Shown: positions 34 to 28,374, counted from the stretch's first letter. The stretch is 32,000 nucleotides of DNA from Chlamydiota bacterium (GCA_016196885.1 JACPWU010000011.1:90001-122000); one strand, 5' to 3'. Notes: generated from the letters alone by a model not told the origin. Translations and numbers: made by a program.

Positions 34-444
34 TCACGCTCTAAAAACCAAGATGTGGGACTTCAAAAATTCTGCATCAAAGGTTTCCAAAAAACCGAGC
101 CGCCCCAGAAGAGGAGGAATTTCGTCCGTATTAAAAAATGCAACAGGAACCTTGCGCAGAAGGTTGCCCAGCTTAACCAAAACCTTTTTTCTGCACAGGT
201 AAATCGTTTGTTCTCCTCCCACACCTCTGGTTGTATCAATTGCACAATCAGATTCAAGAGAAACAGCCAACTCTTTTGCTAAATATTTTGGAAGAATGGT
301 AAAGTCTGCCCCGGTATCTACAACCATCCAAACATCCGTCCATTCTCGAAGACCTTGAGATTGAAAGGAGATTTTAGCTACGGGTCTATAGATAGGGCCA
401 AAAAAGGTTTTACCTTCGTACTTAAAATTAAATTTTACAGCCAT
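34..444 (-). CDS. retropepsin-like (clan AA) aspartic protease, single domain, 136 aa
   Basis: ORF carries the catalytic-type motif VVDTGADFTILP (D-T-G-A) in a ~130-aa protein. Its start overlaps the stop of the upstream small ORF by 10 nt. Confidence 0.7.
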   Translation of the reverse strand: MAVKFNFKYEGKTFFGPIYRPVAKISFQSQGLREWTDVWMVVDTGADFTILPKYLAKELAVSLESDCAIDTTRGVGGEQTIYLCRKKVLVKLGNLLRKVPVAFFNTDEIPPLLGRLGFLETFDAEFLKSHILVFRA

Positions 445-638
445 AAAATAAGGGAATGGGCTTTGGGAAGGTAGGCTATCTCAGGAGTCACACGAGGATG
501 TTTTTTACGAATACCTTCAAGTATTTTTGAAGCCCCCTCACCCGTTTTAGCAGTATAAATCTTCCCGGCAGCTAAAATAACATGCTTACCTCGATAGCGG
601 GGGTTTTTGAAAATATCCACCATCTCTACTTTTCTCAT
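435..638 (-). CDS. small DUF5678-like protein (~67 aa)
   Basis: Sequence YRGKHVILAAGKIYTAKTGEGASKILEGIRKKHP resembles the DUF5678 pattern. The tracked ORF runs to 722, but its N-terminal extension (MSSHFLSLSLGSL...) is low complexity and crosses an inverted-repeat arm. In-frame ATGs at 662, 638 and 623 are possible starts, so the start is uncertain. Confidence 0.5.
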   Translation of the reverse strand: MRKVEMVDIFKNPRYRGKHVILAAGKIYTAKTGEGASKILEGIRKKHPRVTPEIAYLPKAHSLILWL

Positions 639-690
639 AACGGTCTCATTGTAACACCCCATGAGAGGGAATAACAAGGGAGAAAGAGAA

Positions 691-876
691 CCCAAGGACA
701 GAGATAGAAAATGAGAACTCAAGAGCGACAGGTTGGCTCAGATGGACTTGAAGAAAACTCGAGGCATACCTGCAAGGTATGTCGAGATTTTCTGAAAGTT
801 CAGATGGGTCAAGATGTCATGTTTTTATAGTCCCCAGGGGATGCGTCGAATTCCATTTTCTATCTCTGTCCTTGGG
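691..876. repeat. 186-nt element closed by a 23-bp perfect inverted repeat (691-713 / 854-876)
   Basis: cccaaggacagagatagaaaatg is the reverse complement of cattttctatctctgtccttggg. There is an internal 11-bp bulged hairpin at 758-786 (ctcgaggcatacc-tgcaa-ggtatgtcgag) and two copies of cagatgg (739-745, 801-807). It lies between the HAD stop and the DUF5678-like start. Confidence 0.7.
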
Positions 877-3091: not shown

Positions 3092-4213
3092 TTAAACAGC
3101 AAGAGGCACAGCTGAACTTTCGGAATCCTTTTGAATCCTAAAATAAGGCTCGCCTAAAACTTCATATTTCATATTTCGTCGGACGGCCTTATATCCTGCC
3201 ATTTCAATGAGGCGAACCATTTCAGGCTCTGACATACAAAAAACAGTGCCGGCGGCTTTAACTACATTTTCTTCGATCATCACACTGCCAAAATCATCCA
3301 CGCCATATTTTAAACTCACTTGCCCAATTTTTGGACCTTGTGTCACCCAAGACGCTTGCAAATGATCAAAATTATCCAGATAAATCCGGGCAATCGCCAA
3401 TGTTCTCAAATAATCGACCGTAGAAGTTTTTTCTCCACCCATCGGCGTATGATCCGGTTGAAAAGTCCAGGTGATAAAGGCTGTGAACCCATGGGTTTCA
3501 TCCTGTAACTCTCGAAGTCTTTCCAAATGTTCCACACGATCTTCAAGCGTTTCTACATGACCGAACATCATGGTGGCCGTACTTCGGAGTCCAAAGCGAT
3601 GTGTCAATCTCATCACGTCAAGCCATTCATCCGTCGTCACTTTTTTAGGATTAATAATCTTTCGAACGCGCTCAACTAAAATTTCAGCACCCGCTCCTGG
3701 TAAGGAATCCAGTCCTGAGCGAATCAAACGCTTTAACGTTTCTTCTACAGAAAGTTTTGACACCTTCGAAATAAAAACAACTTCTGACGCGGAAAGCCCG
3801 TGAATCCAAATCGGATATTTTTCTTTGATGTGGCGAAACATTTTTTCATAGAAATCAATTTTGAGAGAGGGATTGTGTCCGCCTTGAAGCAAAATCTGCC
3901 GCCCGCCTAGCTCCAGTGTCTCTTCAATTTTTTTGTCCAATTCCTCACAGGAAAGAACATATCCCTTTTTTGAGCCCGGTCTCACATAAAAGGCGCAAAA
4001 ATCACAATCGGTCACGCAAAAATTGGTATAATTAATATTGCGATCAATAATATAAGTAACCGTTTTAGGATCATTCTTACGCGTGCGCACCCAATCCGCA
4101 AGACTCCCCAATAAAGGAAGATCCGGACATTGAAAAAGGGACAGGGCTTCTTTTGAATCAATCCTGTCGCCGTTTCGAACCTTAGATGCGATGTCCTTCC
4201 AATTCATATTCAT
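3092..4213 (-). CDS. mqnC: radical SAM enzyme, cyclic dehypoxanthine futalosine synthase (MqnC)
   Basis: CVTDCDFCAF radical-SAM cluster motif; FITWTFQPDHT, LQASWVTQG and GVDDFGSVMIEENVV blocks typical of MqnC. Last gene of the mqnE-mqnA-mqnC string. Confidence 0.8.
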   Translation of the reverse strand: MNMNWKDIASKVRNGDRIDSKEALSLFQCPDLPLLGSLADWVRTRKNDPKTVTYIIDRNINYTNFCVTDCDFCAFYVRPGSKKGYVLSCEELDKKIEETLELGGRQILLQGGHNPSLKIDFYEKMFRHIKEKYPIWIHGLSASEVVFISKVSKLSVEETLKRLIRSGLDSLPGAGAEILVERVRKIINPKKVTTDEWLDVMRLTHRFGLRSTATMMFGHVETLEDRVEHLERLRELQDETHGFTAFITWTFQPDHTPMGGEKTSTVDYLRTLAIARIYLDNFDHLQASWVTQGPKIGQVSLKYGVDDFGSVMIEENVVKAAGTVFCMSEPEMVRLIEMAGYKAVRRNMKYEVLGEPYFRIQKDSESSAVPLAV

Positions 4214-4979
4214 AAAATCTCAAAGTAGGTTTTTGATGAATCAAATGATGCTTAAACGCCAAATCATAAAAAAGATCGAGCCCCTTTCGATGGGCACGAG
4301 ATTCATCGTAACAAATCGAATGAAGAAAATAATCTAAAATTTGCTCGCGTGTAAACCGGCTTTCTTGAGACAATGCTCCTGAAAGAAGCGCAATTTGCTG
4401 AATGCCCTGATCTTTTGCCTCTATTAATCGGACGACGTTTTCTGATTCAACATCCTCTTTTCCAACCCAAAAGGCATACGTAAAAGGAAGCCCACAGAAT
4501 TGATTCCAGGCTTCTCCCAAATCTATTTTCTCACCTCTATGTCGCATGCCCTCTTCCAAAGCCTGATCCCCAATCAAAAGCGCTGCATCACATGACTGAA
4601 GCATGTTTTTAAGAACGGGAGGGTAAGATTTATATTCTGGATCAATATTCAGAAACTCTTTTGTTAAAATTTTAAGCAATGTCACAGCCGTCCGAGATCT
4701 TTCATCCACTGCAACGTGACGAACTTGAGACAGAGGTTTTTTTAAGAAAAGAATCACCGACTTCACCGGCCCCTTGGAGGAAATCGTAACATTCGGGACA
4801 ATTGAAAGTCCTGACATGCGGGCATATTCAATGGAGGGAATAAGAGAAAAATCTACTTTGCTTTCTACAAGAGCCGATGCACAGGCATTGGGAGAACCCC
4901 AGAAAAAAAAATTCTCCTTTTCTTCCAACCCTTGAATAAGGGGTTTTGCATTGAGAAAATCACTGGCCGCTATTTTCAT
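4182..4979 (-). CDS. mqnA: chorismate dehydratase (MqnA)
   Basis: MKIAASDFLNAKPLIQGL N-terminus, LLIGDQAL and DLGEAW..F.GLPFTYAFW blocks of the MqnA/VitK2 biosynthesis family. Proposed ATG at 4979 (tracked ORF runs to 5090 through a GC-rich structured spacer). Overlaps mqnC by 32 nt. Confidence 0.8.
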   Translation of the reverse strand: MKIAASDFLNAKPLIQGLEEKENFFFWGSPNACASALVESKVDFSLIPSIEYARMSGLSIVPNVTISSKGPVKSVILFLKKPLSQVRHVAVDERSRTAVTLLKILTKEFLNIDPEYKSYPPVLKNMLQSCDAALLIGDQALEEGMRHRGEKIDLGEAWNQFCGLPFTYAFWVGKEDVESENVVRLIEAKDQGIQQIALLSGALSQESRFTREQILDYFLHSICYDESRAHRKGLDLFYDLAFKHHLIHQKPTLRFYEYELEGHRI

Positions 4980-5013
4980 ACATTGAAAATCTCTAAAAAC
5001 CCTTATCTGTAGA

Positions 5014-5135
5014 GACCTCTCAAAAAGGTCCCAGCTGCAAGGCGCCCACGAGCGACCGCGGAGGCGTACGTTTTCCAGTACGCCGCACAAGGGAGCGAAG
5101 TGGGCAACGCCGCAGATGGGCCTTTTTCAGAGGTC
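5014..5135. repeat. GC-rich intercistronic rod-like hairpin between mqnE and mqnA
   Basis: Arms gacctctcaaaaagg (5014-5028) and cctttttcagaggtc (5121-5135) match 14 of 15. Inner helices are cccagctgc/gcagatggg, ggcgcccac/gtgggcaacgcc (bulged) and an apical ggcgtac-N8-gtacgcc. The right arm contains the mqnE stop codon (5127-5129). Confidence 0.65.
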
Positions 5136-6230
5136 CCACATTTTAACCACTTGATAGAGCGCCCCTCTTTCGATGGGATCTCGTCCAGCCTCTCGAATGA
5201 GCCGAATCAACGTCTCACGTGTCAAAGCATCTTGCGTTTTTGCACCTGCATCGTGATAAATTTTCTCTTCAATCACAGAGCCATCAATATCATCTGCCCC
5301 ATAGAAAAGAGCAATTTGCGAAAGAGCGGGCGTCAGCATAATCCAATAAGCCTTAATATGTGGAAAATTATCCAGAAGAAGCCGGGAAACAGCCAAGGTC
5401 TTCAAATCATCTATGCCCGTCGTCCAACCCATTTTACCCATGCGATTGTTTTCAGGATGATAGGCCAGTGGAATAAAACATAAAAAACCGCCTGTTTCAT
5501 CCTGAGCCTCACGCAATTGAAGAAGGTGACGGACCCTCACATCATATTTTTCAACATGGCCGTAAAGCAGGGTGGCATTGGTCGGGATGCCTAAACGGTG
5601 AGCCGTCTTCGCAATTTCAAGCCAACGGGCTCCTGTCGCCTTCTCACCCGCAATTTTTTTGCGAATTTTCTCATCAAAAACCTCAGCCCCTCCGCCCGGT
5701 AAAGAACCCAAACCAGCTTCTTTAAAATCTCTTAAAACTTGTTCCGCTGTTTTCCCGTAAAGCTGAGCAAAAAAATCAACTTCCACACAAGTAAAGGCCT
5801 TAATGTGAAGTTTTGGATTCTCTTCTTTAATCGCTTTCAAAAGTTTTAAATAATAATCGTAAGGGAGATCTGGGTTAAGCCCCCCCACCATGTGAAGTTC
5901 TGTCAAGCCTTGATCTCGCACCTTGCGAATCTTTTCCAGAATCTGGTTTATATCCAGCGTATATCCTTCCGGATGGTCCACATCTCTTCTAAAAGAACAG
6001 AACAGACAATCCACGGCACAAATATTGGTATAATCAATATGTAGGTTGGTCACAAAATAAGCTTTATTGCCATTTTTTCTTTCTCGAGCCAGATTGGCAA
6101 GCATTCCAATAGTATTTAAATCCTGAGACTGAAAAAGCCGAAGGCCATCTTCATAAGAGAGCCGTTCCCCAGCTTCAACTTTATCCACGATCAAAGACAA
6201 CTCTGATTTTTCGAGAAGAAGATCTATCAT
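5127..6230 (-). CDS. mqnE: radical SAM enzyme, aminodeoxyfutalosine synthase (MqnE)
   Basis: CAVDCLFCSFRR cluster motif; LTELHMVGGLNP, FIPLAYHP, VSRLLLDNFPHIKAYWIM, GADDIDGSVIEEKIYHDAG and LIREAGRDPIERGALY blocks agree with my recollection of MqnE (SCO4494 family). Confidence 0.8.
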   Translation of the reverse strand: MIDLLLEKSELSLIVDKVEAGERLSYEDGLRLFQSQDLNTIGMLANLARERKNGNKAYFVTNLHIDYTNICAVDCLFCSFRRDVDHPEGYTLDINQILEKIRKVRDQGLTELHMVGGLNPDLPYDYYLKLLKAIKEENPKLHIKAFTCVEVDFFAQLYGKTAEQVLRDFKEAGLGSLPGGGAEVFDEKIRKKIAGEKATGARWLEIAKTAHRLGIPTNATLLYGHVEKYDVRVRHLLQLREAQDETGGFLCFIPLAYHPENNRMGKMGWTTGIDDLKTLAVSRLLLDNFPHIKAYWIMLTPALSQIALFYGADDIDGSVIEEKIYHDAGAKTQDALTRETLIRLIREAGRDPIERGALYQVVKMWDL

Positions 6231-6346
6231 TTTTCTAATTCTTCTAATATGACTGTTACTTTTTTCTTGAAATAATGAGAGTGGAATTTAATTTCAATGA
6301 TCTTTCGAGATCATCGTATGCAGTGAAAGTTCTCTCCATCACGCTT

Positions 6347-6399
6347 TTTTGTAGTCGCTCGATTCATCGGGCAGCCCCATAAATGGGGCGACTACAAAA
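6347..6399 (-). repeat. double-hairpin intergenic repeat, copy A (inverted orientation)
   Basis: ttttgtagtcgctcgattcatcgggcagccccataaatggggcgactacaaaa is the reverse complement (1-2 mismatches) of the elements at 17057-17103 and 20843-20901. Confidence 0.85.
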
Positions 6400-6442
6400 C
6401 GAACCTCACTTCTTTCATAACAAAAAGGAGGTCTTACCTTTT

Positions 6443-6733
6443 TCACAGGGAAACAGCCTCTTTCAAAACTCTATCTCGAATGTACCAATGAATCGCTTTT
6501 TCAGTGACCACGTCTACACCTCGCCCCAACAAACTCTGAAGTTCCATCAACAACTTTCCCACGTCAAAAAGACTTCGACCCTTGTCTAATGCAATTAAAA
6601 AATCCACATCGCTCTTAGGTCCGGCTTCTCCCCTTGCAACAGAGCCAAAAACCCTCACATGATGAGCTCCATGCTTGGCAGCAATGCGTAAGATCTCTTC
6701 CCTCTTAGATTTTAAAATTTCTTCAATGCCCAT
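6443..6733 (-). CDS. MNT-type nucleotidyltransferase (type VII TA antitoxin-like)
   Basis: [22 protein letters not shown] matches the GS-x9-SDxDxL minimal nucleotidyltransferase motif; 96 aa. Confidence 0.8.
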
Positions 6734-6790: not shown

Positions 6791-6887
6791 TCACAACCCC
6801 GGCTGAGTCCAGATGCGACTCACCTTTTCTTTAACTGAAGAATCCATCACAATCTCATCGGGCCACTCTCGGTCAAAACCCTCTCTC
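6791..6887 (-). pseudogene. displaced relic of the 3' end of the UbiD-family decarboxylase gene
   Basis: The minus strand reads ..EGFDREWPDEIVMDSSVKEKVSRIWTQPGL*, against ..EGFDREWPDEIVMDRDVKTRVDEIWKKLGL* at the live gene end (7714-7810). The first 43 nt (6842-6884) are identical to 7765-7807. Confidence 0.7.
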
Positions 6888-6894
6888 CTTAGTT

Positions 6895-7167
6895 CTATCG
6901 AGATCCGGATACACCTTTTGCAATATACTGTTTAATTAAAGATTGGTAAGGAACTCTCAGTTCGTTCGCTTTTTCTTTGAGACGCATCAACAATGCCTCT
7001 GATAAACGAATAGAAATGGAACGAGAGGTCGGTTTAAGATTGGGAAATGAAACCGCTTGAAGATCGTTTGACTCAAAATAATCCGCAAGATCTATATTTG
7101 ACCAAAAATCTCTTTCTTCATCTTCATTTTTAAACTTCGGTAATTCAAGAGCTTTAGACTTTTTCAT
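6895..7167 (-). CDS. brnA: BrnA antitoxin (CopG/RHH type)
   Basis: N-terminal FKNEDEERDFW and C-terminal ISIRLSEALLMRLKEKANELRVPYQSLIKQYI ribbon-helix-helix. 4-nt overlap with brnT. Confidence 0.8.
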   Translation of the reverse strand: MKKSKALELPKFKNEDEERDFWSNIDLADYFESNDLQAVSFPNLKPTSRSISIRLSEALLMRLKEKANELRVPYQSLIKQYIAKGVSGSR

Positions 7168-7445
7168 AAGCCCCTCTCTTTTCTATTCAAGTCCCTGGCA
7201 GAAATGATTCGAATTCTTCTTCCTCGAACCGTAAATACAATAAACAATGATCTTAAAGCCTTTGAACGACCCATCAGAAGAAATCTCTTTTCCTTCCCAG
7301 CATACAAGATTTCCTTCAAAATACGCTTATGAGGATCAAAAAAAACCTCTTCGCACTCCTCACATGTCACGCTATGTTTGAGAAAATTTTTCTCTCTGTT
7401 TCCAGAATCCCACTCAAAACGAATTGGCTTACTAAAAACATCCAT
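7164..7445 (-). CDS. brnT: BrnT toxin (DUF497 ribonuclease family)
   Basis: FEWDSGNREKNFLKHSVTCEECEEVFFDP matches the BrnT signature (feWD..K...N..KH.v.feEa..vF.D); 93 aa. Confidence 0.85.
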   Translation of the reverse strand: MDVFSKPIRFEWDSGNREKNFLKHSVTCEECEEVFFDPHKRILKEILYAGKEKRFLLMGRSKALRSLFIVFTVRGRRIRIISARDLNRKERGL

Positions 7446-7522
7446 GCAAACCTGTATATACTATATGATACATCTTGAAAAAATTCAATTTCAAAAGAGA
7501 TCCGCGAAGCATTAGATGATGT

Positions 7523-7699
7523 ATTTAAAAGTGTGTCCTTTTATTGATGCGGGTGGCCCGACTGGGGGTCCCCCGCTGATCGCCAGCAGATGGAGACATT
7601 GACCCTCTTATTACATCACAACCCAACCGACATCGATGCCGTCAGCGGGGGTGAGGAGGGACAGGACCCGCCTCCTCTTAAAAGGACACACTTTTAAAT
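7523..7699. repeat. 177-nt GC-rich element closed by a 21-bp perfect inverted repeat
   Basis: atttaaaagtgtgtcctttta (7523-7543) is the reverse complement of taaaaggacacacttttaaat (7679-7699). Inner helices are gcgggt/acccgc and cccccgctga/tcagcggggg, separated by a ~15x14-nt internal loop. It starts 15 nt beyond the UbiD-family stop codon. Confidence 0.7.
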
Positions 7700-7713
7700 T
7701 ACACGATCAAGAC

Positions 7714-9159
7714 TTACAATCCCAATTTTTTCCAAATCTCATCTACTCGCGTTTTCACATCTCTATCCATCACAATCTCATCGGGCCACTCTCGGTCAAA
7801 ACCCTCTTCTTTCCACTTCCGCGTCGCATCAATTCCGACCTTGCTTCCCAGAGCCATACGACGGCCGGCATGGTCCAAGACATCAATGGGTCCCTGGGTA
7901 AACATAAAATCCCGTTCGGGATCAATGTGATTCAACGCCTTCCAGGCCACTTCCTTCACGTCCTGAATATTCACATCTTTGTCTACCACCACGACCACCT
8001 TGGCAAAACACAATTGGGCCAAACCCCAAATGGCACTCATGACTTTTCGGGCCTGACCTGGATAGCGCTTGTCAATCGAAACCAAAAGCAAATTATGAAA
8101 AACGCCTTCAGCCGGCATGTGCATATCTACAAGCTCAGGCAATTGCTTTTTTAAAATCGGAAGAAAAATTCTCTCGGTCGCCTTCCCCATGAAAAAATCT
8201 TCCTGAAGGGGTGCACCCACAATAATCGTCGGATAAACAGGATTTTTCTGCATCGTCATCGCCGTTACATGAAAAACAGGATAGAGATCCGCCAAAGAAT
8301 AATAACCCGTGTGATCGCCAAACGGGCCTTCCATTCGCATTTCTTCAGGATCCACATATCCTTCTAAAACAATTTGGGAATTAGCCGGGATTTCTAAATC
8401 AATCGTCTTACCCTTCACCATTTCTACCGCTTTATTTCGAATAAACCCAGCAAGCATCATTTCATCTACCCCTTCAGGCAAGGGTGCCGATGCAGAATAA
8501 ATCACGGCCGGATCGGGGCCTAAGGCAACTGCCACTTCCATCCGCTTCTTCATTAATTTCGCCTTGTGAAAATGAGCCGCCCCGCCCTTATGAATTTGCC
8601 AATGCATGCCGATGGTTTTCTCATCAAAAATTTGAAGGCGATACATGCCATAATTTGCAGCATCCGTTTCTGGATCTTGGGTGATCACCACGGGCAAAGT
8701 AATGTAACGCCCACCATCTTGCGGCCAACATTTCAAGGCCGGCAAATCAAAAAGCGAAAAATTTTCCGTGTTCACAATCTCCTGACAAGCCCCCTGACGA
8801 ATTGTTTTGGGTTTCAATGCTTTTAAAGTTTGCAACATGGGAAGCATTTGAACAGATTCAAAAAAAGTGGAAGGAATTTTAGGTTCTAAAAAAGAAGCCA
8901 CGCGCTCGGCCAATTCTGAAAAACTTTCTACACCGAGGGCCATGCACATCCGCTTCTCGGTTCCGAATGTATTAATCAAGAGAGGAATTTTTGAGCCTTT
9001 AACCTTTTCAAAAAGAAGCGCAGGACCTCCAGATTTGGTCACACGATCCGTGATCTCCGTGATTTCCAAAATGGGATCGACTTCAAAAGAAACGCGTTTA
9101 AGCTCCCCCCGCTTCTCAAAGGCTTTTATAAAATCGTTGAGTGTGTCGTAGGAATACAT
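7714..9159 (-). CDS. UbiD-family (prenyl-FMN dependent) decarboxylase, menaquinone-associated type
   Basis: 481 aa with UbiD blocks (GGPALLFEKVKGS, NYGMYRLQ, HWQIHKGGA, GPFGDHTGYY). Context of mqn genes suggests the SCO4490-like menaquinone decarboxylase. Confidence 0.85.
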   Translation of the reverse strand: MYSYDTLNDFIKAFEKRGELKRVSFEVDPILEITEITDRVTKSGGPALLFEKVKGSKIPLLINTFGTEKRMCMALGVESFSELAERVASFLEPKIPSTFFESVQMLPMLQTLKALKPKTIRQGACQEIVNTENFSLFDLPALKCWPQDGGRYITLPVVITQDPETDAANYGMYRLQIFDEKTIGMHWQIHKGGAAHFHKAKLMKKRMEVAVALGPDPAVIYSASAPLPEGVDEMMLAGFIRNKAVEMVKGKTIDLEIPANSQIVLEGYVDPEEMRMEGPFGDHTGYYSLADLYPVFHVTAMTMQKNPVYPTIIVGAPLQEDFFMGKATERIFLPILKKQLPELVDMHMPAEGVFHNLLLVSIDKRYPGQARKVMSAIWGLAQLCFAKVVVVVDKDVNIQDVKEVAWKALNHIDPERDFMFTQGPIDVLDHAGRRMALGSKVGIDATRKWKEEGFDREWPDEIVMDRDVKTRVDEIWKKLGL

Positions 9160-9349: not shown

Positions 9350-12300
9350 CTATGCCTTTCGACGACACATCATTGAAAGCATAATAATAGCCGTTTCAAA
9401 AAGGACATATCCGATAACGTAAGGCACCCCCCCTGAGCCAAATCCATAACTGTGCAGACCTGCCGCTAAAATAAAATTAACACCATAATAAGTCATTAAG
9501 ATCAGGGAAAATCCCAGAATAGCAAGTATCGAAATCCCAAAATTTCCGATCCACCCCGCATATCGCGCATGAATCATTGCCAAATATCCAAGAATAGAAA
9601 TCAAAGCCCATGTTTCCTTAGGGTCCCAACCCCAGAAACGGCCCCAGGATTCATTGGCCCAGACACCTCCCAATATAGTACCCGCTATAAGAAACATAAC
9701 ACCGATTTGGATCGTCTTATAGATAAAGCCTGCAGTTTGATGAAATGCCTCTTTTTTTTCAGGACCCAAAAAATAGAGTCCCAGATTGTAATGTGCAATT
9801 CCCATAGCCAAGGCAAAGGCACTGTAACTGAGCACAACAGTCAAAACGTGAACCGTCAACCAAAGATTGCTTTTTAAAACAGGAACCAGTTGAGTAATGC
9901 TTGAATCAATGGGCACGCTCTGGGCAATAACCAAGAGAAAAAATCCAAGAAAAGTTGCGACGGAGCTAAGCAATTTTGTCTTGTAGGCCATTTGAAGGAT
10001 CAGGGCAAAAAAACATATTCCCCAGATGAGAAAAATCAATGACTCATACATGTTTGAAACTGGAGCCCTTCCTGAAATGACGATTCTTAAGGCAATCCCC
10101 AAGGTATGGAAAACAAAACCCGCAACAAAGGGAAGTAAATAAATAATGGATCTTCCTTTGGGGGAGACAAAAAGTGAAAAGACAAAGGCTGAAAAATAGA
10201 AGACCCAGGCTTTCTGAAATGGGGCCCATTCATTATAAAGAATTTCCCTATTCAGGGAACCTTCAGATGGATAATCTCCCCCTGGCAAATTGCGAAGAAA
10301 ACGGGCAAGCTCTTTAGTAGACTCCTCAAAAGAGAAGGCATCCCTCTTTTGAAAAGAGAGCCCAACCTTCTGAAAAATTCTTTTAAATTCCTGGGCAAAT
10401 TTTGGATCGTATTGATCCATCTTTTTCAAACTCAACCATTCCCCATCCTTGTGTTGAATGTCTGGAAGAAGTGTATAGGCGTCTCCTGAAACGACATCAT
10501 GAAACTGTTGCATCTGCTGATAAAGCGCGGCAACCTTCCTTTCATAAGGGTTCAGTGCTTCCCTTTGCATTTGTTTTTGAATCATTTTTCCAAAAAGACG
10601 TTGCAAATTTTCATTCTGACTGAGTTCTTTAAACGAAAAATATTTTCTCTTCAGATCCAGCTTGGCATCTTCCATCAGTGGATGGAAGGTCACACGAATG
10701 ACCTGACGTTCAATAGCTTGTTCAGGGTCAATGGACAGAGACAGAAGATTTTCAATAGCCCTTTTCCCCTCGAATTTTTCTTTACCCGTCATCCATTTCA
10801 TAAATTCATTGGCGAAGGTCTGAAGAGGTTTTGTTCTCCCGCCACTTTGAATGGCAATTTTCTCACAATAAGAATAATTAAGTTTATCTTCAGCTGAGGA
10901 CGCTTGTGAAAGGGAAAAGAGAGCCATCATACAGAGAGAAACCGCTATTTTTTCAACCATGTTGTTTTTCTTGTTTTTAAAACGACTGGTAAAAAACAGA
11001 ATATAAATTCCTAGGATCATAACTATACTTCCTCCATAAATGAAATGAATACCGGGGTCATGGTTAATGGAAAAAATAGACACATCAGATCCATTATTTT
11101 CGCCCTGAACATAACTGGATTGAAAAATTTTAAAGCCCCTGTGTTTTAGCGGATGATTCATATAAATACTTCGATCTTGATCATGAATGATAGCAGGACC
11201 CGTTATTTTTACTTTGCTTTCATAGTTCATTGGCTGGTTAGAACCAGGATAAAATGCCAGGTTGAAATCAACAAGTTCAAGTTTAAAACCCAAAGGAATC
11301 ATTTGATGTTGATATCCTATCTCAATGTGCTCGCCATCCAGGTGCAGAACTTTGCGCCCACCTCTTTGGATCCAAATTTCACGGGTTTGATGGCCCAAAG
11401 AATTTCTTAATTTAAAACGCAGGGCTGGAGTCTGATCTTCCTTGTTGATTTCAGAAGGACTGATTCGAGACGACACCCTTGCCTTGGGAATGAAATCCTC
11501 AATCTTAAACTCAAGCCCCATCCACCCCGTTTGAAGAGGTTCTTTCAACGAAAGAGAACCTACTCGAGACAATCCAGAGCTGTTTTGGAGTTTGTAATAC
11601 AGTTTATTTCGAGGCCCTAAAAAGACGGTAAGAATATTCGCATGATCTAGATTCTTTTCGGGAATAAGGGTTTTAAGGGTTGCCGCAGGCGATAAATTTT
11701 TTTCTTTTAATTCTAGAAATAACTTTTCGACATCTTTCGTTCTTTTAATTTTCTGAAAGCAAACCGTGGCAGGACCCAATTCTAAATGGTTTTTGGCATC
11801 ATCCTCGAGGACCAGTTGATCTTCAACGGAAGTCATTGCATTGGCCAGACTAAACGAAAGAACCGGATATTTTCTCCTACCACCCGCCTTGTACACATTT
11901 TCCTGTACACTATTCTCATAATATTGATCAACCCTGAGTTCCAGGTCACTGTCAGGGATTTTTGTAATCCAGGGTGTTTGATTGAGCCCCTTGGTAAATC
12001 TTTTCTTCAGCGAATGCGTACCCTTCTGAGTCCGTATGTTTATTTCTTCAACATGACTCTCAAACGCTGTGGCACTTTCTTTTTCGCGAAGTGCAAGATC
12101 GCCTTCAACGCCAAAAAATTTGCTGACCATGGAGCCCGCCAAAAGCAAGAGAAGCCCTGCGTGTGTAATAACAAAACCCGTGTGATATTTTCTGAAGGGC
12201 CACCTTTTAAAGGTAGAAAACAAAACATTAAGAAACAACAAACCCAGAGTAACTACAAACCAATTCGTCTTGTATACCAGTTGCTGCGCAGCTTCAGTTC

Positions 12301-12421
12301 CCAGAGTGGACTCGTAGAAAGTCCCGACGGCAAGGATCATACCCAGGGCAATCATCAGGACAATGGCAAAGATATAGGATCCGGTAAAGGAAAGAATTCT
12401 TTTCAAAAGAAGCTCCATCAT
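9350..12421 (-). CDS. ccsBA: fused system-II cytochrome c biogenesis protein CcsBA (ResB-like N-terminus + CcsA/ResC C-terminus)
   Basis: 1023 aa. The N-terminal ResB-like membrane/periplasmic part is followed by a polytopic C-terminus with the WWD heme-handling motif WANESWGRFWGWDPKETWA. Confidence 0.85.
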   Translation of the reverse strand: MMELLLKRILSFTGSYIFAIVLMIALGMILAVGTFYESTLGTEAAQQLVYKTNWFVVTLGLLFLNVLFSTFKRWPFRKYHTGFVITHAGLLLLLAGSMVSKFFGVEGDLALREKESATAFESHVEEINIRTQKGTHSLKKRFTKGLNQTPWITKIPDSDLELRVDQYYENSVQENVYKAGGRRKYPVLSFSLANAMTSVEDQLVLEDDAKNHLELGPATVCFQKIKRTKDVEKLFLELKEKNLSPAATLKTLIPEKNLDHANILTVFLGPRNKLYYKLQNSSGLSRVGSLSLKEPLQTGWMGLEFKIEDFIPKARVSSRISPSEINKEDQTPALRFKLRNSLGHQTREIWIQRGGRKVLHLDGEHIEIGYQHQMIPLGFKLELVDFNLAFYPGSNQPMNYESKVKITGPAIIHDQDRSIYMNHPLKHRGFKIFQSSYVQGENNGSDVSIFSINHDPGIHFIYGGSIVMILGIYILFFTSRFKNKKNNMVEKIAVSLCMMALFSLSQASSAEDKLNYSYCEKIAIQSGGRTKPLQTFANEFMKWMTGKEKFEGKRAIENLLSLSIDPEQAIERQVIRVTFHPLMEDAKLDLKRKYFSFKELSQNENLQRLFGKMIQKQMQREALNPYERKVAALYQQMQQFHDVVSGDAYTLLPDIQHKDGEWLSLKKMDQYDPKFAQEFKRIFQKVGLSFQKRDAFSFEESTKELARFLRNLPGGDYPSEGSLNREILYNEWAPFQKAWVFYFSAFVFSLFVSPKGRSIIYLLPFVAGFVFHTLGIALRIVISGRAPVSNMYESLIFLIWGICFFALILQMAYKTKLLSSVATFLGFFLLVIAQSVPIDSSITQLVPVLKSNLWLTVHVLTVVLSYSAFALAMGIAHYNLGLYFLGPEKKEAFHQTAGFIYKTIQIGVMFLIAGTILGGVWANESWGRFWGWDPKETWALISILGYLAMIHARYAGWIGNFGISILAILGFSLILMTYYGVNFILAAGLHSYGFGSGGVPYVIGYVLFETAIIMLSMMCRRKA

Positions 12422-16988: not shown

Positions 16989-17056
16989 AACTCTTCTCAC
17001 AATCTGATGAGAAACATACATGACTTTCAGTCACAAAGGGGGATGAAAATCACCCT

Positions 17057-17103
17057 TGTAGTCGCCCCATTTATGGGGCTGCCCGATGAATCGGGCAACT
17101 ACA
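17057..17103 (+). repeat. double-hairpin intergenic repeat, copy B
   Basis: tgtagtcgc-cccatttatgggg-ct-gcccgatgaatcgggc-aactaca. The outer stem encloses hairpins cccca/tgggg and gcccga/tcgggc. Confidence 0.85.
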
Positions 17104-17329
17104 AATCATCATAACTTATTGTATAAGAACAACTAAAGACTATTTTCAGATGAAATGCGGGCTAAAGACCAAGCCAATGCTGCCAAAATAACGCCAGGCA
17201 ATTCTATATGGCCCCCCCTACCAAGTCCAGCCAAAACGCAACATTGCCAATCTATGACTCTTCTCTATGGATTGAAGGAGTAGATTTTTTTACTGACCGC
17301 TGATCGCTGAATACTGTATCTTGTTCCTA

Positions 17330-19294
17330 ATGATTGCCTTTCATAAAGAAATTTTAAAAAATTACGAGCGAGCCTCTCACCGAGAGTGGGTGATTGGAAA
17401 CGGCCTGGGAGGCTATGCGTCTTCTACCATCTGTGGAGGAAATACACGGCGATATCACGGCCTTCTTGTTTCAAGTGTAAAGCCACCCCTCGGTCGCATG
17501 GTGATTCTCTCCAAAGTGGAAGAAACCATTCACATCAATGGAAAGTCTTATGATCTTTCTTGCAATAAATTCCCTGAAACGATTCACCCCATGGGGCATC
17601 AAAATTTAGAGCTTTTCTCTTTTGAATTTTATCCCAAATTTATTTATTCCGTGGATGGGATTAGACTGGAAAAAAACATTTACATGATTTTTGAGAAAAA
17701 TGCGACGATCATTTTTTATCGGCTTTTAGAGAGTCCCCGCCCTATTAAACTGAGCCTGATGAGCTTTATCGCCTGCCGTCGATTTCACGAGCTGACGCAT
17801 GAAAATCCATTCTTTAACCAAGAGGTGGAAGTGAACGAGGGCCTTTTGAGAATGAAGCCTTATAAAAGCTCTCCCATGATTCACCTTTTTTACAGCCCCG
17901 CCCAATTTGCAAACAATCCACTCTGGTACTTGAATTTCGAATACGAGGAAGAATACCGAAGAGGTTTAGATTATAGAGAGGATCTTTTTACACCCGGAGA
18001 TTTAACATTTGATCTGGCGCCGGGAGGTTCTTGTTTTCTCATTGCCTCCACAGATGAACTCTCCTCTTCTGATCTTCTTCAAGCCGAGTTCAAAGAAACC
18101 GAACGCAAGAAAATGATTCTCAAAAATTGTGATAAGGATAATAAAATTTCTTTTTCCCTTTTTTTGGCCGCGGATAGTTTTATTGTTCAGCGCGGAGAAA
18201 AGGGCTCGGCCTCTGTCATCGCCGGTTATCACTGGTTCAGTGATTGGGGGCGAGACACCATGATCAGTCTTCCGGGTCTGACCCTCGCCACCGGGAGATT
18301 CGACTTGGCTAAAAGTATTCTCAACACCTTTTCAAAATATGTCTCTGAGGGGATGCTCCCCAACCGCTTCCCGGATGAAGGGGAAGAGCCTGACTACAAC
18401 ACGGTGGATGCCACGCTCTGGTTTTTCAATGCCGCTTATCAATATTTTCTTTACACGGGCGATGAAGGTTTTATTCGCACCATTTTATTTCCGGTTTTTA
18501 AAGACATTATTCAGTGGCATGAAAAAGGAACCCGTTATCAAATTCATGTGGATGAAGACGGCCTCCTTTACGCGGGCGAAAAGGGCACGCAGCTCACGTG
18601 GATGGATGCCAAGGTCGGAGATCAAGCCATCACGCCCCGCATTGGGAAGGCAGTGGAGGTCAATGCCCTGTGGTACAACACGCTCAGAATTATGGAATTT
18701 TTCTCGGATCGCTTCGGCTATCAGCCGCTCCGGGACCATTACGGATCCATGGCCGAGACTGCTCGAAAAAATTTCAACCGGCTTTTCTGGAACAAGGATA
18801 AGGATTGTCTATACGATTGTATATACAAAGAAGAAATGGACCCCTCCATTCGGCCCAATCAAATTTTCGCCATCAGCCTTCCCTTCCCCATTCTGAGGGT
18901 AGAGAAACACCGCTCTGTCTTGAAAGTCATTGAAAAAGAATTGCTCACGCCTTATGGCTTAAGAAGTCTTTCTCCCAAAGATCCAAGATATGTTGGAAAA
19001 TATTCTGGGAATGTCCTTGCCAGAGACAAGGCTTACCACCAGGGAACCGTTTGGCCCTGGCTTTTAGGGCCCTATGTCACGACCTTTTTTCGGGTCTATG
19101 GACGAAACTCTAAAACCATCGAAAAGGCCAAATCTCTTTTAGAACCTTTCCGGGATCATCTCTACGAAGGCGGCCTGGGAACTATCTGTGAACTCTTTGA
19201 CGGAGATCCCCCCCATGATGCCAATGGCTGCATCTCTCAAGCCTGGAGCGTTGCGGAACTTTTACGCGTCATAGTGGAAGAATTGGGGGAATGA
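17330..19294 (+). CDS. glycogen debranching enzyme (amylo-alpha-1,6-glucosidase, GDE_C family)
   Basis: N-terminal GNGLGGYASSTI..NTRRYHGLL and central GYHWFSDWGRDTMISLPGL, DATLWF and QGTVWPWL blocks. Confidence 0.8.
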   Translation: MIAFHKEILKNYERASHREWVIGNGLGGYASSTICGGNTRRYHGLLVSSVKPPLGRMVILSKVEETIHINGKSYDLSCNKFPETIHPMGHQNLELFSFEFYPKFIYSVDGIRLEKNIYMIFEKNATIIFYRLLESPRPIKLSLMSFIACRRFHELTHENPFFNQEVEVNEGLLRMKPYKSSPMIHLFYSPAQFANNPLWYLNFEYEEEYRRGLDYREDLFTPGDLTFDLAPGGSCFLIASTDELSSSDLLQAEFKETERKKMILKNCDKDNKISFSLFLAADSFIVQRGEKGSASVIAGYHWFSDWGRDTMISLPGLTLATGRFDLAKSILNTFSKYVSEGMLPNRFPDEGEEPDYNTVDATLWFFNAAYQYFLYTGDEGFIRTILFPVFKDIIQWHEKGTRYQIHVDEDGLLYAGEKGTQLTWMDAKVGDQAITPRIGKAVEVNALWYNTLRIMEFFSDRFGYQPLRDHYGSMAETARKNFNRLFWNKDKDCLYDCIYKEEMDPSIRPNQIFAISLPFPILRVEKHRSVLKVIEKELLTPYGLRSLSPKDPRYVGKYSGNVLARDKAYHQGTVWPWLLGPYVTTFFRVYGRNSKTIEKAKSLLEPFRDHLYEGGLGTICELFDGDPPHDANGCISQAWSVAELLRVIVEELGE

Positions 19295-19357
19295 ATACGA
19301 CAGTTGTGAGGGGTGAGTCGTGCGGGGTGAGTTTAAAATAAATAAATATGTATATTT

Positions 19358-19385
19358 TAACAAATAATCCTAGGATTATTTGTTA
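19358..19385. promoter_or_regulatory. 28-nt perfect palindrome (operator and/or bidirectional terminator)
   Basis: taacaaataatcctaggattatttgtta is self-complementary. A TATAAT box follows at 19393-19398, only ~11 nt before the ATG of the ATPase gene (19409). Confidence 0.5.
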
Positions 19386-19408
19386 TTTTACGTATAATAT
19401 CTTTCCGT

Positions 19409-20731
19409 ATGAGAATCCATCGCCATTTTCTACACTCAGAGCTTTTAAAGCATTTCCAAAACCCTAAAGAAGTCATTGTCTTAGAAGGGGTTAGACAAAC
19501 GGGTAAAACAACACTCATCAAACAGTCTTTAGAAGGGAAACCCTCCCTCATCGTCACTCTGACAGATGAAACCGTTCCTGTCATTCGCTTGAGGGAAGCT
19601 GCGACCTTTGAAGATTTTTCGGAAATTCTTGCCCGTGATTTTCATTTTCATCCTCGTGACGCAAAACCGCTTGTCATTGATGAAGCCCAAAAATCTCTCC
19701 ACTTGCATAAGTTCATTCTCAAAATGCATTCTGACTGGAAGGAAACACCCCTTGTCTTGTCAGGTTCAGCCATGGGTGTTTTCTTTAAAAGAAGTGAAAT
19801 CCAAAAAACGGTTTCACCTGCCGGAAGGGTTCGACGTTTTGTCTGTCGAGTCTTTTCTTTTGCGGAATATCTGGAACTGAAAGGAGAGGAAACACTGCTC
19901 TCGCAGATCCGTCATTTCAATCTGGGTCAAACCTTACATCCAACTCTACATGAGCGCCTCATGAATCTCTTTTATGATTATCTCTCATCGGGGGGATTTC
20001 CAGAGGCGATTAAGTTTGGAACAACGGAAAAAATTTATGATTATCTGGAAACACTTCTCTCTTTTTTCTGGCAAGATGCAGACCGATACCTTAGTGAACT
20101 CATGGGTTCTAACAAAAGACAATACGGAATGTTGTTTAGAACCATTCTAGAAAGTGTTGCACGTCTAACCTGTTTTAACTCTACACGGGCGAGTCTCATC
20201 TCGACAGATTCTCCAGCGTACCGCACAGACTTGCCTGTTCTGTTGGATGCCGCAGAGGAATGGCATTTTCTGTTTCGACTTCCGACATACATGGAGTCTT
20301 TGACCCCTCAAAGGCACAGCTCCAAAAAATATTTATGGGATGTCGGCGTCGTAAACCACTTTCTAAACGTGGGACGCCCTATTTCAGGTTCATCGTCGCC
20401 GGAGCTCCTCGCCAAACTTCTGGAGTCCTTTACAGCCCAAGAACTTATTTTTGCCTTGAGACACAAAGAGAGACTCTTTTCTTGGAAGAGTCAGGTTAAG
20501 CAGCCCAAAGAAATGGATTTCCTCGCCCGCTTTCCTGAAAAAGATGTAGGTATCGAAGTCAAATCATCTTCCTCTATCAGTCAAAAGGCCATTTCCCAAT
20601 TGAGGGAATTTAAAAAGAGAAATCCAAAAGCCCCTTGTTTTGTGATTTATCTGGGCCCTGTGATGCAAATCGAAAACATCTGGTTCATTCCTCCTTATTT
20701 GCTGGGTGAACTGGCAAGATGGGTAAAGTAA
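19409..20731 (+). CDS. AAA-family ATPase with C-terminal DUF4143-like region
   Basis: Walker A GVRQTGKTTL and Walker B LVIDEAQ; 440 aa, the typical size of the ATPase/DUF4143 family. Confidence 0.75.
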   Translation: MRIHRHFLHSELLKHFQNPKEVIVLEGVRQTGKTTLIKQSLEGKPSLIVTLTDETVPVIRLREAATFEDFSEILARDFHFHPRDAKPLVIDEAQKSLHLHKFILKMHSDWKETPLVLSGSAMGVFFKRSEIQKTVSPAGRVRRFVCRVFSFAEYLELKGEETLLSQIRHFNLGQTLHPTLHERLMNLFYDYLSSGGFPEAIKFGTTEKIYDYLETLLSFFWQDADRYLSELMGSNKRQYGMLFRTILESVARLTCFNSTRASLISTDSPAYRTDLPVLLDAAEEWHFLFRLPTYMESLTPQRHSSKKYLWDVGVVNHFLNVGRPISGSSSPELLAKLLESFTAQELIFALRHKERLFSWKSQVKQPKEMDFLARFPEKDVGIEVKSSSSISQKAISQLREFKKRNPKAPCFVIYLGPVMQIENIWFIPPYLLGELARWVK

Positions 20732-20842
20732 AAATAAATCAAAAATAAAATATCAAAATGACAAACCAAAATCCAAAATGTATCTATGTCATGGATTATG
20801 AAACCATTTTAAATTTTGATTTTTGCTATGAGAGGCTCATTT

Positions 20843-20901
20843 TGTAGTCGCCCCATTTATGGGGCTACCCATGGATTTGCCCGATGAATCGGGCGACTAC
20901 A
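20843..20901 (+). repeat. double-hairpin intergenic repeat, copy C (with 12-nt internal insertion)
   Basis: Same as copy B but with acccatggattt inserted before the second hairpin. The insertion looks like a degenerate duplication of gcccgatgaatc. It ends 15 nt before the tldD ATG. Confidence 0.85.
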
Positions 20902-20915
20902 AAAGCTAAAAATTT

Positions 20916-22455: not shown

Positions 22456-22857
22456 ATGGCGTTACTATACCGAGATATCACGTATGAGATCAGAGGGGCA
22501 TGTTTCTGGATATGGAAAGAATTTGGAAACGCTTTCAAAGAATCTATTGTTGACAAAGCCCTCACGGAAGAACTCAGAAAAAGAGGGCTTAAAGTTACCG
22601 ATCAAAAGCGCATTGACGTTTTTTATAACAACAAAAAGGTTGGAACTTATGTCCCGGATAAAATCGTCAATGATTGCGTCCTTGTTGAGATCAAGAGGAA
22701 ACCCTTTTTGCTTAAGCAAGATAAAGAACAGTTTTGGCATTATCTCAAAGGTTCTAGTTATAAACTAGGAATGTTAATCAACTTCGGAGAAAGGGGATTG
22801 GAAATCAAGCGAGTCATCTACGACATCAAGAGAGGGATCCGCATCAGATCCGCGTAG
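22456..22857 (+). CDS. GxxExxY-family protein (PD-(D/E)XK nuclease-like fold)
   Basis: ITYEIRGACFWIWKEFGNAFKESIVDKALTEELRKRGLKV...VFYNNKKVGTYVPDKIVNDCVLVEIK follows the family pattern. The GxxExxY motif itself is degenerate (AFKESIV). Confidence 0.7.
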   Translation: MALLYRDITYEIRGACFWIWKEFGNAFKESIVDKALTEELRKRGLKVTDQKRIDVFYNNKKVGTYVPDKIVNDCVLVEIKRKPFLLKQDKEQFWHYLKGSSYKLGMLINFGERGLEIKRVIYDIKRGIRIRSA

Positions 22858-24393: not shown

Positions 24394-25236
24394 ATGAAAA
24401 TTAAAGCCATGATCCGCCTCGCCCATTCCCCCGACGCGGACGACGCCTTCATGTTCTATGGGCTCGCCAAGGGATTTATTCAAGATGAAGACATAGAATT
24501 TTCGCATACACTCTGTGACATTGAGAGTCTGAATCAAAAAGCAAAAGTTGGGTTTTACGAAGTCACGGCCCTTTCGGTCCACGCCTATCCCTATGTCAGC
24601 AACCAATACGATATTCTCTTGCATGGGGCCAGTATTGGAGATAATTACGGCCCCCTTTTAGTGGCCAGAGAAAAAATAAGAATCGAAGATCTTGCAAAAA
24701 AAACCATCGCAGTTCCAGGCACCCTGACCACTGCCTATCTCGCACTACGTCTTTTCAATCCCAATCTCAAAACGGTCATCGTTCCCTTCAACCAAATCAT
24801 TTCGCATGTCGAAGAAGGCAAGGCCGATGTGGGACTCATCATTCACGAAGGCCAACTGACTTTCTCTGAAAATGGGCTTCATAAACTATTAGATTTGGGA
24901 GAATGGTGGTATGAGAAAACAAGACTTCCCCTTCCTTTAGGGGTCAATGGGATTCGAAAGGACTTAGATCCACCCCTTCAGAAAAAAATTGCTCGGCTTC
25001 TGAAAGAAAGCATTTGCTACGCCCTCTCCCACCGCAACGAAGCGCTACAGCATGCCTTACAATTCGCCCGAGGGATGGACCCCAAACTCGCGGATCAATT
25101 TATTGGCATGTACGTCAATGAAGAAACCGTAAAAATGAGCAAGAGAAGCCAAAAGGCGATTCAAGTTCTTCTCGATCAAGCGTTCGAGGCAAAACTGATT
25201 TCTACTGACAAACCTTCTCTCCAATACATTGAATGA
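24394..25236 (+). CDS. mqnD: MqnA/MqnD-family protein, probable 1,4-dihydroxy-6-naphthoate synthase (MqnD)
   Basis: N-terminal IRLAHSPDADDAFMFYGL, DIESLNQKA and GPLLVAR blocks of the VitK2 biosynthesis (MqnA/MqnD) fold. mqnA is already present at 4182-4979, so MqnD is the likelier role. Confidence 0.6.
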   Translation: MKIKAMIRLAHSPDADDAFMFYGLAKGFIQDEDIEFSHTLCDIESLNQKAKVGFYEVTALSVHAYPYVSNQYDILLHGASIGDNYGPLLVAREKIRIEDLAKKTIAVPGTLTTAYLALRLFNPNLKTVIVPFNQIISHVEEGKADVGLIIHEGQLTFSENGLHKLLDLGEWWYEKTRLPLPLGVNGIRKDLDPPLQKKIARLLKESICYALSHRNEALQHALQFARGMDPKLADQFIGMYVNEETVKMSKRSQKAIQVLLDQAFEAKLISTDKPSLQYIE

Positions 25237-28092: not shown

Positions 28093-28374
28093 TTACGACA
28101 AAATCTCTTTCAAAATTTTCTCGGCCTCGTCCTTTTCCACCTTAGAATACCAGACATGCCTCGGGGTCACCATCACATTAGGGCCTTGGGCACAAAGGTC
28201 AAAGCAACCCGAGCGCGTGACCCTTACTTTTCCCCTGAGACCGTGCAACTCGACATAAGACTTCAAAAACTCACAAAGAGCCTCTCCCGCCTTGCCACAA
28301 GCAGCTTCTCCCTGTTCCCGTTCTTTTGTGCAAACGAAAAGATGTTTAAGATAAGGGTTGGATGATTTTTTCAT
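28093..28374 (-). CDS. thioredoxin-like [2Fe-2S] ferredoxin
   Basis: HLFVCT...ACG...SGCFDLCAQGPNVMV cysteine pattern of the TRX-like ferredoxin family. ATGA start/stop overlap with the HEPN gene. Confidence 0.7.
   Translation of the reverse strand: MKKSSNPYLKHLFVCTKEREQGEAACGKAGEALCEFLKSYVELHGLRGKVRVTRSGCFDLCAQGPNVMVTPRHVWYSKVEKDEAEKILKEILS

Follow-up and report, generated by a model that had tools for sequence, protein, structure and literature searches.

In a 32,000-nt stretch of a metagenome-assembled genome (MAG) deposited as Chlamydiota bacterium (GCA_016196885.1, JACPWU010000011.1; the whole stretch is hereafter the window, and coordinates are positions in it unless stated otherwise), we found a small toxin-antitoxin (TA) gene pair, brnT-brnA (brnTA), inserted at the 3' end of a UbiD-family menaquinone biosynthesis decarboxylase gene. 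The cassette is bracketed by a perfect 43-bp direct repeat (R), and each copy of R is followed by a different version of the gene's last 17 codons: tail A, which completes the live gene, and tail B, stranded without a gene body behind the cassette. Tail A has the low GC content of the cassette and was probably imported with it, and tail B is probably the native end. No recombinase gene accompanies the cassette, and direct repeats likewise flank many brnTA cassettes at other metagenomic loci. We propose, with moderate confidence, that the cassette came from a related donor by integration guided by homology to the decarboxylase gene, with no dedicated integrase taking part.

The decarboxylase gene end and its two tails

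In the direction of the genes, all of them on the minus strand, the order is a CcsBA-type cytochrome c biogenesis gene (9350-12421), the UbiD-family decarboxylase gene, a GC-rich inverted-repeat element, brnT, brnA, the second copy of R with a short open frame, an MNT (minimal nucleotidyltransferase) gene and a futalosine-pathway block made up of an MqnC/E-like radical-SAM gene, an MqnA-like gene and a second radical-SAM gene. The decarboxylase neighbourhood is a futalosine-pathway cluster with MqnA-like and CofH/MqnC-like genes, as assigned with Pfam, which was used for all protein domains. The features that define the gene end and its displaced counterpart are the following.

7714-9159, minus strand: live UbiD-family menaquinone biosynthesis decarboxylase, 481 aa (Pfam UbiD_N/UbiD/UbiD_C; name from the source record)
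7765-7807, minus strand: R, gene-proximal copy (from the sequence), coding for (E)GFDREWPDEIVMD in the live gene
7714-7764, minus strand: tail A, the live C-terminus, RDVKTRVDEIWKKLGL plus stop, the last 17 codons of the live gene (from GC content and alignment to relatives)
6885-6894, minus strand: 10-nt joint, AACTAAGGAG on the gene strand, from the brnA stop to distal R; the right-hand junction of the insert
6842-6884, minus strand: R, distal copy, 100% identical to 7765-7807
6791-6841, minus strand: tail B, the displaced C-terminus without a gene body, SSVKEKVSRIWTQPGL plus stop (from GC content and alignment to relatives)

The 43-mer R (ATCCATCACAATCTCATCGGGCCACTCTCGGTCAAAACCCTCT) occurs exactly twice in the window, with a start-to-start spacing of 923 nt; no further copy was found there at up to 3 mismatches, and 100 shuffles predict 0. 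Read on the minus strand, the live copy runs ...KEEGFDREWPDEIVMD-RDVKTRVDEIWKKLGL and the distal copy ...RREGFDREWPDEIVMD-SSVKEKVSRIWTQPGL, each ending in a stop. The two tails are equal in length with their stops in register, and tblastx between the two ends gave an E value of 3e-13, so that the first-pass annotation was right to describe both a perfect repeat and, past its distal copy, a diverged version of the decarboxylase C-terminus. Copy against copy, identity is 43/43 in R and 23/51 nt or 8/17 codons (stop included) in the tails, and homology stops abruptly at the 5' edge of distal R, with none found upstream of that copy. Neither copy of R showed hairpin potential (fold z 1.0 and -0.7). 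With tail A in place, the live C-terminus keeps the family consensus VK.RVDEIW.KLGL, and this tail being in frame, the decarboxylase is, as judged from its reading frame, intact. Moreover, UbiD (with tail A), BrnT, BrnA and MNT follow one another as proteins in two MAG records that were deposited separately (MBI1883461-64 and MBI3265835-38), and a one-off error of assembly is thereby made less likely.

We compared this arrangement with the six closest decarboxylase proteins (78-85% protein identity), for which five distinct genomic contexts could be obtained. The gap between ubiD and the MqnC/E-like radical-SAM gene is 13-158 nt in all five but 1483 nt in the window, and the region therefore holds inserted DNA, comprising brnTA and, separately, the MNT gene. 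The latter counts as an insertion of its own because the relatives, all five of them, are without MNT too. The empty site that the first-pass annotation had predicted, with a decarboxylase gene ending in tail B directly followed by MNT, was not encountered. No third tail remnant, which would be a sign of tandem accretion, was found between MNT and the radical-SAM gene. In the closest relatives, the stretch equivalent to R matches at 32-35 of 43 positions (74-81%). Since R is so poorly kept among relatives and yet 43/43 between the two copies, the perfect duplication records the event itself and not conservation, and both copies would most simply be host sequence.

The tails differ from one another in composition as well as in sequence. 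GC content is 35% in tail A and 30-38% in the leader, brnT and brnA, against 49% in tail B (53% at third codon positions, GC3) and 45% in host ubiD (GC3 46.5%). Tail A matches the tail of relative L002 at 37/51 nt and tail B at only 23/51, and tail B in turn shares 36 of 51 nt and, counting the stop, 12 of 17 codons with the tail of L007. Among the relatives, the most A-like tails (71-73%) occur in L002 and L009, both low in GC (ubiD GC3 29-30%). Similarity alone did not tell which tail is native, both tails lying within the diversity of the clade (A nearest L002, B nearest L007). Because tail A is composed like the cassette and tail B like the host gene, tail A was probably imported with the cassette and tail B is probably the displaced native end, a moderate inference given the shortness of the segments. 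Together with the gap seen in relatives, these compositions bear out the earlier suggestion that the insertion at the decarboxylase 3' end brought its own replacement end.

As to the host itself, the nearest relative of the decarboxylase among GTDB representatives, at 82% identity, comes from L009 (JAYRIK010000112.1), which carries the label Candidatus Auribacterota. The source MAG bears the NCBI name Chlamydiae/Chlamydiota, a label that may be imprecise.

The brnTA cassette here and in other metagenomes

The first-pass annotation had listed brnT, brnA and a GC-rich inverted repeat as the content of the insert. The two genes stand, and the GC-rich repeat is set apart below as a separate element, resembling a miniature inverted-repeat transposable element (MITE), with its own 8-bp target-site duplication (TSD). 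The cassette comprises the following.

7446-7514, minus strand: cassette leader with a promoter-like site (from the sequence)
7164-7445, minus strand: brnT, BrnT ribonuclease toxin (by family), 93 aa (PF04365, 80 bits; cutoff 34.5)
6895-7167, minus strand: brnA, CopG/RHH antitoxin, 90 aa (PF12441, 91 bits; cutoff 28), named BrnA antitoxin in the source record

By its domains and its overlapping operon the locus qualifies as a BrnT/BrnA type II TA system, with which it shares both domains, the toxin gene in first place, the overlap (4 nt) and a promoter leader bearing a palindrome. The proteins themselves are ordinary. Window BrnT has every invariant column of a 28-sequence family alignment, and its closest relative is 70% identical. 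The best sigma-70-like site of the region (TTGAAA-18-TATCAT, 7494-7465, minus strand) falls inside the leader, so placed that brnTA appears to have its own promoter. With the MITE-like element removed, the leader measures 66 nt from the tail A stop to the brnT ATG, and both this length and a GTATATAC-type palindrome agree with other brnTA cassettes. Taking out the element and one TSD copy (202 bp) also brings the repeat period to 721 bp, and between the copies of R there then remain only tail A, the leader, brnT, brnA and the 10-nt joint, with no pseudogene fragments of an island.

We then surveyed 80 metagenomic brnT loci, comparing the left with the right flank of each cassette. With 1.5-kb flanks, direct repeats were present in 19 of the 50 usable loci, compared to one of 50 in a reversed-flank control, and with 500-nt flanks in 12 of 46 cassettes, compared to two of 62 pseudo-cassettes drawn from the same loci (Fisher p 6e-4). 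The survey, small as it is, suggests that such scars are common, being found at about a quarter of brnTA cassettes versus 3% of controls. Among 13 positive loci checked for copy number, nine had exactly two, locus-specific, copies. No sequence was common to the flank repeats of different brnTA loci, except in an integron-like pair (L113 and L139).

Two of these loci clearly mirror the window in that the 3' end of a neighbouring gene is duplicated. In L119, a Mg-chelatase/ComM-like gene end (...IEPSHMLEALQYRAREI plus stop) is followed by brnTA and then by a decayed version (...IEPAHMLEAL*YRARE), and in L129 a second version of the final ~65 codons of a 251-aa gene lies across brnTA from the first, with 87% identity over 283 nt. 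L115, L116 and L156 share with the window the order of a near-identical block and, after it, a diverged stretch; L166 has a perfect 63-nt repeat without a diverged extension.

The junctions are placed much alike from locus to locus. In six loci, 59-71 nt lie between the end of the left repeat and the brnT ATG (66 nt in the window once the MITE-like element is taken out); in six loci and in the window, 0-16 nt separate the brnA stop from the start of the right repeat; and seven loci have a repeat period of 656-744 bp (721 bp in the window, again without the element). A TTGACA-like box and GTATATAC-type palindromes are common to the leaders, so that the left boundary corresponds roughly to a minimal promoter. 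No conserved terminal motif was found at the cassette boundaries of the surveyed loci.

brnTA was also seen in integron-like arrays: in L113 a ~72-nt repeat occurs eight times, once every ~700 nt, and L139 (2674-3437) has hairpin repeats with RYYYAAC/GTTRRRY ends (fold z -3.8). For the repeats of the window and of most other loci, an attC identity was rejected. The same type of cassette thus travels by at least two routes.

How the cassette may have entered the gene

TA pairs are among the most horizontally mobile of prokaryotic genes (PMC2701414). Most carry no mobility gene, and in the literature searched their entry into chromosomes was described only via carriage on other elements. The window preserves the junctions of one such entry, namely a duplicated 43-bp host block, a borrowed in-frame end and a stranded native end, at a locus where a gene of an essential pathway, menaquinone biosynthesis, can tolerate insertion into its coding end. 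The Pfam scan, extended to 42 kb of the 99-kb source contig, revealed no integrase, transposase or other recombinase domain either between the repeats or in the rest of that region, in agreement with the first-pass annotation, which had seen none in the insert.

In the reading that we favour, the insert is a self-contained cassette of ~0.72 kb consisting of the 66-nt promoter leader, brnT, brnA and ~10 nt. The donor would have been a related organism of lower GC content in which the cassette already lay just downstream of the same gene, and hence its last 17 codons (tail A) would have been carried along. The incoming DNA would have run gene end-tail A-leader-brnT-brnA, and its integration would have been guided by homology to the decarboxylase gene, with no site-specific integrase involved. 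As to the precise route, our tentative suggestion is a homologous switch at the boundary between R and the tail, combined with an illegitimate joint at the far side: the switch from host to donor would lie at the end of the 43-bp R, and the far end of the donor DNA would be attached, illegitimately, 43 bp further upstream, so that host R would be duplicated and native tail B stranded behind the cassette. This donor, this order of events and this pairing of one homologous crossover with one illegitimate joint are what we infer. The MITE-like element would have landed later, right after the new stop codon. Going by established TA behaviour, addiction would be expected to counter loss of the cassette in the window, and through the perfect 43-bp repeat the insert could still be deleted precisely, leaving the gene to end in tail B again. 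A Campbell insertion, in which a circle would have brought in a diverged donor R, is disfavoured, because it would result in two unequal copies of R, and pure target duplication cannot account for tails of 45% identity beside the perfect block.

There is precedent for such a process. Incoming DNA with one homologous segment can integrate by a single crossover that duplicates this segment (109-950 bp), or by homology-facilitated illegitimate recombination (PMC3240628). As proposed for the window, one homologous anchor directs the foreign DNA into the chromosome in those systems; they differ in being laboratory constructs with identical anchors, whereas the anchor here would be the diverged end of an orthologous gene, and the outcome has become fixed in a natural population.

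Several points weigh against integration guided by homology. The tight right junction, 0-16 nt past the brnA stop across independent loci, is not expected from random illegitimate joining; the cassette could have defined ends that are handled by some other mechanism or, alternatively, could have been trimmed repeatedly to its functional minimum. Recombination between genes ~75% identical in DNA is inefficient, and duplication rather than deletion of the recipient's 43 bp in one step, which the route calls for, is no more than plausible. The composition argument, which would mark tail A as foreign, is built on 51-nt segments. A same-species empty site was not found, the comparison being with five relatives at 78-85% protein identity; the protein collection, in which the 90%-identity cluster of the decarboxylase has one member, lacks the hypothetical tail-B allele; the donor arrangement, with ubiD followed directly by brnTA, occurs in none of 87 further ubiD loci; and no BrnT relative above 70% identity was found.

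The first-pass annotation had likened the locus to islands integrated at dedicated attachment (att) sites at the 3' ends of tRNA or other genes. Direct repeats and a gene end restored by element-borne sequence, as such islands have, are indeed present. The analogy nevertheless finds no support in what concerns a fixed, reused site. The 43-mer had no match in viral and metagenome collections; the 880-bp insert had no match among plasmid and phage records. The 87 further ubiD loci, from diverse taxa (at least 3 kb of downstream DNA was available in 73 of the 89 loci scanned overall), revealed no displaced C-terminus, no DNA repeat at the 3' end and no downstream brnTA. A dedicated and reused attachment site is not supported, because the 43-mer is absent from the collections searched and the 87 loci are unoccupied. 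Moreover, since other organisms have the same footprint at unrelated, locus-specific targets, homology-guided or illegitimate recombination accounts for it better than a fixed att site.

We therefore regard as unlikely, though foremost among the alternatives, that a small circular element without an integrase (a satellite of an unseen island, or akin to a cis-mobilizable element, CIME) integrated site-specifically through an attP mimicking the last 31 codons of the gene, with R as the att core and the integrase encoded elsewhere in the genome. The sharp outer edge of the repeat and the in-frame restoration of the gene end do give the classic attL/attR picture, and a second cassette 6.5 kb off, of similar size (965-bp period) and with a 42-nt repeat containing a 24-nt identical block, would fit a small unit that itself moves. 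CIMEs, which are defined by retained attL/attR and lost integration genes, derive from integrative and conjugative or integrative and mobilizable elements, and rely for mobilisation on a related element whose integrase acts at that same site (PMC5704250). The brnTA insert is like a CIME in its flanking attL/attR-like repeats and its lack of integration or transfer genes. It is unlike one in that no related element was found at the gene in the 87 loci, no integrase in the 42 kb of contig and no island gene remnants between the repeats, and in that the flank repeats of other brnTA cassettes are unrelated to one another; with no common sequence among these, there is no common site for a recombinase to bind. 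An attP tail only 45% identical beside 43 perfect base pairs would need extra assumptions as well, R being 74-81% conserved in relatives.

Among integrative elements that insert at the ends of protein-coding genes, e14 and phage 21 in icd of E. coli duplicate the 3' end of their target, complete the gene with their own sequence and displace the original end; they have their own integrase, and the att site is fixed in many strains. Gene-end replacement in the window is similar, but without an integrase or any other occurrence of the site, and with an insert of ~0.72 kb.

Rather more doubtful is the idea that brnTA, and perhaps other small TA pairs, are discrete mobile units of ~0.63 kb, running from ~65 nt before brnT to 0-16 nt past the brnA stop, that a trans-acting mechanism inserts with duplication of a 40-280 bp target, often a gene end, in a process going beyond the usual homologous or illegitimate recombination. 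If so, that mechanism would have left its mark in the tight junction geometry seen at independent loci from different organisms.

The closest described phenomenon is, by analogy, the insertion of restriction-modification (RM) units with long target duplication (Nobusato et al. 2000; Furuta, Abe and Kobayashi 2010, PMC2853133). Those too are addictive ('poison-antidote') units without a mobility gene, flanked by repeats of more than 30 bp for which related genomes have one aligned copy; a stop codon often falls within the repeat, so that the target gene survives. In the window we likewise find a unit made up of brnTA alone, with no mobility genes, an insert of less than 20 kb and a 43-bp repeat with a single homologous copy and no insert in the five relatives, which at 78-85% protein identity are not of the same species. 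The differences are that the unit is a type II TA pair and that the repeat is a hybrid, with 43 bp perfect and 51 nt homologous, of other origin and 45% identical. In the literature searched, this footprint was described for RM units only and not for TA cassettes.

Improbable, all the same, is a primary insertion of exactly the RM type, in which the whole 94-bp target (R plus tail) was duplicated and the tails diverged later. In its favour, addictive units lacking mobility genes are known to leave this footprint, with repeats of more than 30 bp that often lie over a stop codon (PMC2853133, PMC3874152), and L166, with its perfect 63-nt repeat, looks like such a case. Neutral decay, however, cannot give tails matching at 23/51 next to an R matching at 43/43, and the tails resemble different relatives and differ in GC content in the direction expected of foreign versus native DNA.

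That the locus is what is left of a larger integrative island, from which integrase and cargo were deleted and the TA pair and att sites retained, is very improbable. Decay to att-flanked remnants is documented (PMC5704250), and TA modules resist deletion; nine other two-copy loci, however, have the same minimal unit with tight boundaries, to which independent decay is unlikely to have led each time, and no island pseudogene fragments lie between the repeats.

An integron-type gene cassette at a secondary site, or part of an attC array without its integrase, can virtually be set aside: size and content are typical of integron cassettes, and brnTA does occur in integron-like L113 and L139, but the window repeats are coding sequence of a housekeeping gene, lack R''/R' boxes and hairpin potential, and come as two copies only, with neither an array nor an IntI. 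An assembly artefact, whereby strain variants, or an empty chromosome and a free circle, were joined via the 43-mer, is just as hard to credit, for although the source is a short-read MAG in which a 43-bp repeat is shorter than many reads and an assembly-graph loop could be threaded once, the four proteins recur side by side in a second, separately deposited MAG, some real molecules must contain the brnA-R junction and the same footprint is found in many unrelated assemblies.

If this picture of common scars with a shared geometry is borne out, TA cassettes would be traceable between genomes by their borrowed flanks, the route of long target duplication would extend from RM units to a second class of addictive genes, and a concrete, testable model would be at hand in which a single homologous gene end serves as the anchor. 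The recurring scars in unrelated microbes hint at how TA pairs spread without a mobility enzyme of their own.

The MITE-like family, a second cassette and other neighbours

The GC-rich inverted repeat between tail A and the leader is described by two features.

7515-7708, no strand assigned: MITE-like element, 194 bp, GC-rich rod-folding core within ~29-nt terminal inverted repeats (TIRs) (from recurring copies)
7709-7716, no strand assigned: TSD of the element, AAGACTTA, overlapping the tail A stop codon (from the sequence)

The TIRs of this copy include 21 perfect nt (7523-7543 and 7679-7699), and the TSD partner, AAGCATTA at 7507-7514, matches AAGACTTA at 6/8 positions. Arms and core ends recur a little beyond the window. 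Copy 2 (L001 ~19162-19422) shares ~65 nt of the left and ~50 nt of the right end, has a different and longer centre and a perfect 8/8 TSD (GTCTACCC). Copy 3 (L001 19501-19651) is the GC core alone, in opposite orientation and without the AT-rich arms, and a degenerate fourth copy lies 7 kb further on (source contig ~54485-54510). The ends of the core are sharply conserved (GCGGGTGGCCCGACTGGGGGTCCCCC ... GGGTGAGGAGGGACAGGACCCGC), its centre is variable and the TIRs are AT-rich; it has a 29-pair consensus rod, five pairs of which are kept through changes on both sides. With TIRs, a TSD, three copies plus a degenerate one in 42 kb (150-260 bp each) and no coding capacity, the inverted repeat belongs to an independent MITE-like family and is a secondary insertion, not cassette cargo. 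It is absent from the relatives' loci; neither a transposase nor an autonomous parent was found within the 42 kb, and its inverted-repeat arm had no match in viral contigs.

Two other identities for the GC-rich element were considered and rejected. As a structured RNA it had no match in Rfam, either at gathering thresholds or at E values up to 10, and there were no tRNA or tmRNA genes. A guide relation of the bridge-RNA type between its variable centre and the local repeats was not borne out, the longest shared words being 8-9 nt, within the shuffle range.

The second cassette lies ~6.5 kb away, partly past the window edge (window 34-702; L001 18458-19464). It has genes for a 67-aa protein without a Pfam match and a 136-aa retropepsin-like Asp_protease_2 protein, and is flanked by a 42-nt repeat with a period of 965 bp, of which the last 24 nt are identical and the first part is diverged; MITE copy 2 lies inside it. 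In relatives L002 and L008, this site has a HAD hydrolase gene followed by AstA instead. These two cassettes are the only gene pairs in the 42 kb bracketed as insertions by direct repeats. A shared att sequence was sought between R and the second cassette's repeat, and none was found. Just upstream of this cassette is a further inverted repeat (691-876), with 23-nt perfect arms and 140 nt of structured sequence between them, whose right arm overlaps the left copy of the second cassette's repeat; it has MITE-like architecture and unrelated sequence.

The other insertion at the decarboxylase locus lies between tail B and the radical-SAM gene.

6443-6733, minus strand: orphan MNT nucleotidyltransferase, without a HEPN partner or flanking repeat (Pfam)

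A promoter-like site for MNT lies inside tail B (6811-6783, minus strand). Other selfish or defence-type modules are wedged among housekeeping genes at 2160-2818, 19409-20731, 22456-22857, 25310-26723 and 28371-29068, the types being DUF7718 with a UPF0175-like gene, AAA_14/DUF4143, PD-(D/E)XK between two TldD/PmbA genes, AbiEi/AbiEii and an MNT-HEPN pair. No flank duplication was found around the other modules of the window (orphan MNT, PD-(D/E)XK, AbiEi/Eii, MNT-HEPN, DUF7718/UPF0175 and AAA_14).

The futalosine genes are partly duplicated (3092-6230 and 24394-25236): there are two CofH/MqnC-like radical-SAM genes, whose DNA is 72% identical over a 69-nt stretch, and two MqnA-like VitK2_biosynth genes ~20 kb apart in the window. 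Finally, a ~100-nt element resembling repetitive extragenic palindromes (REP-like), with a double hairpin (TTTTGTAGTCGCCCCATTTATGGGGCTGCCCGATGAATCGGGCGACTACAAAA) and conserved flanks, is present in five copies in the 42 kb, all of them intergenic (window 6300-6420, 17056-17105 and 20840-20904; source contig 50392-50670 and 54528-54668); in one of them, ~140 nt are inserted precisely into the first hairpin's loop.

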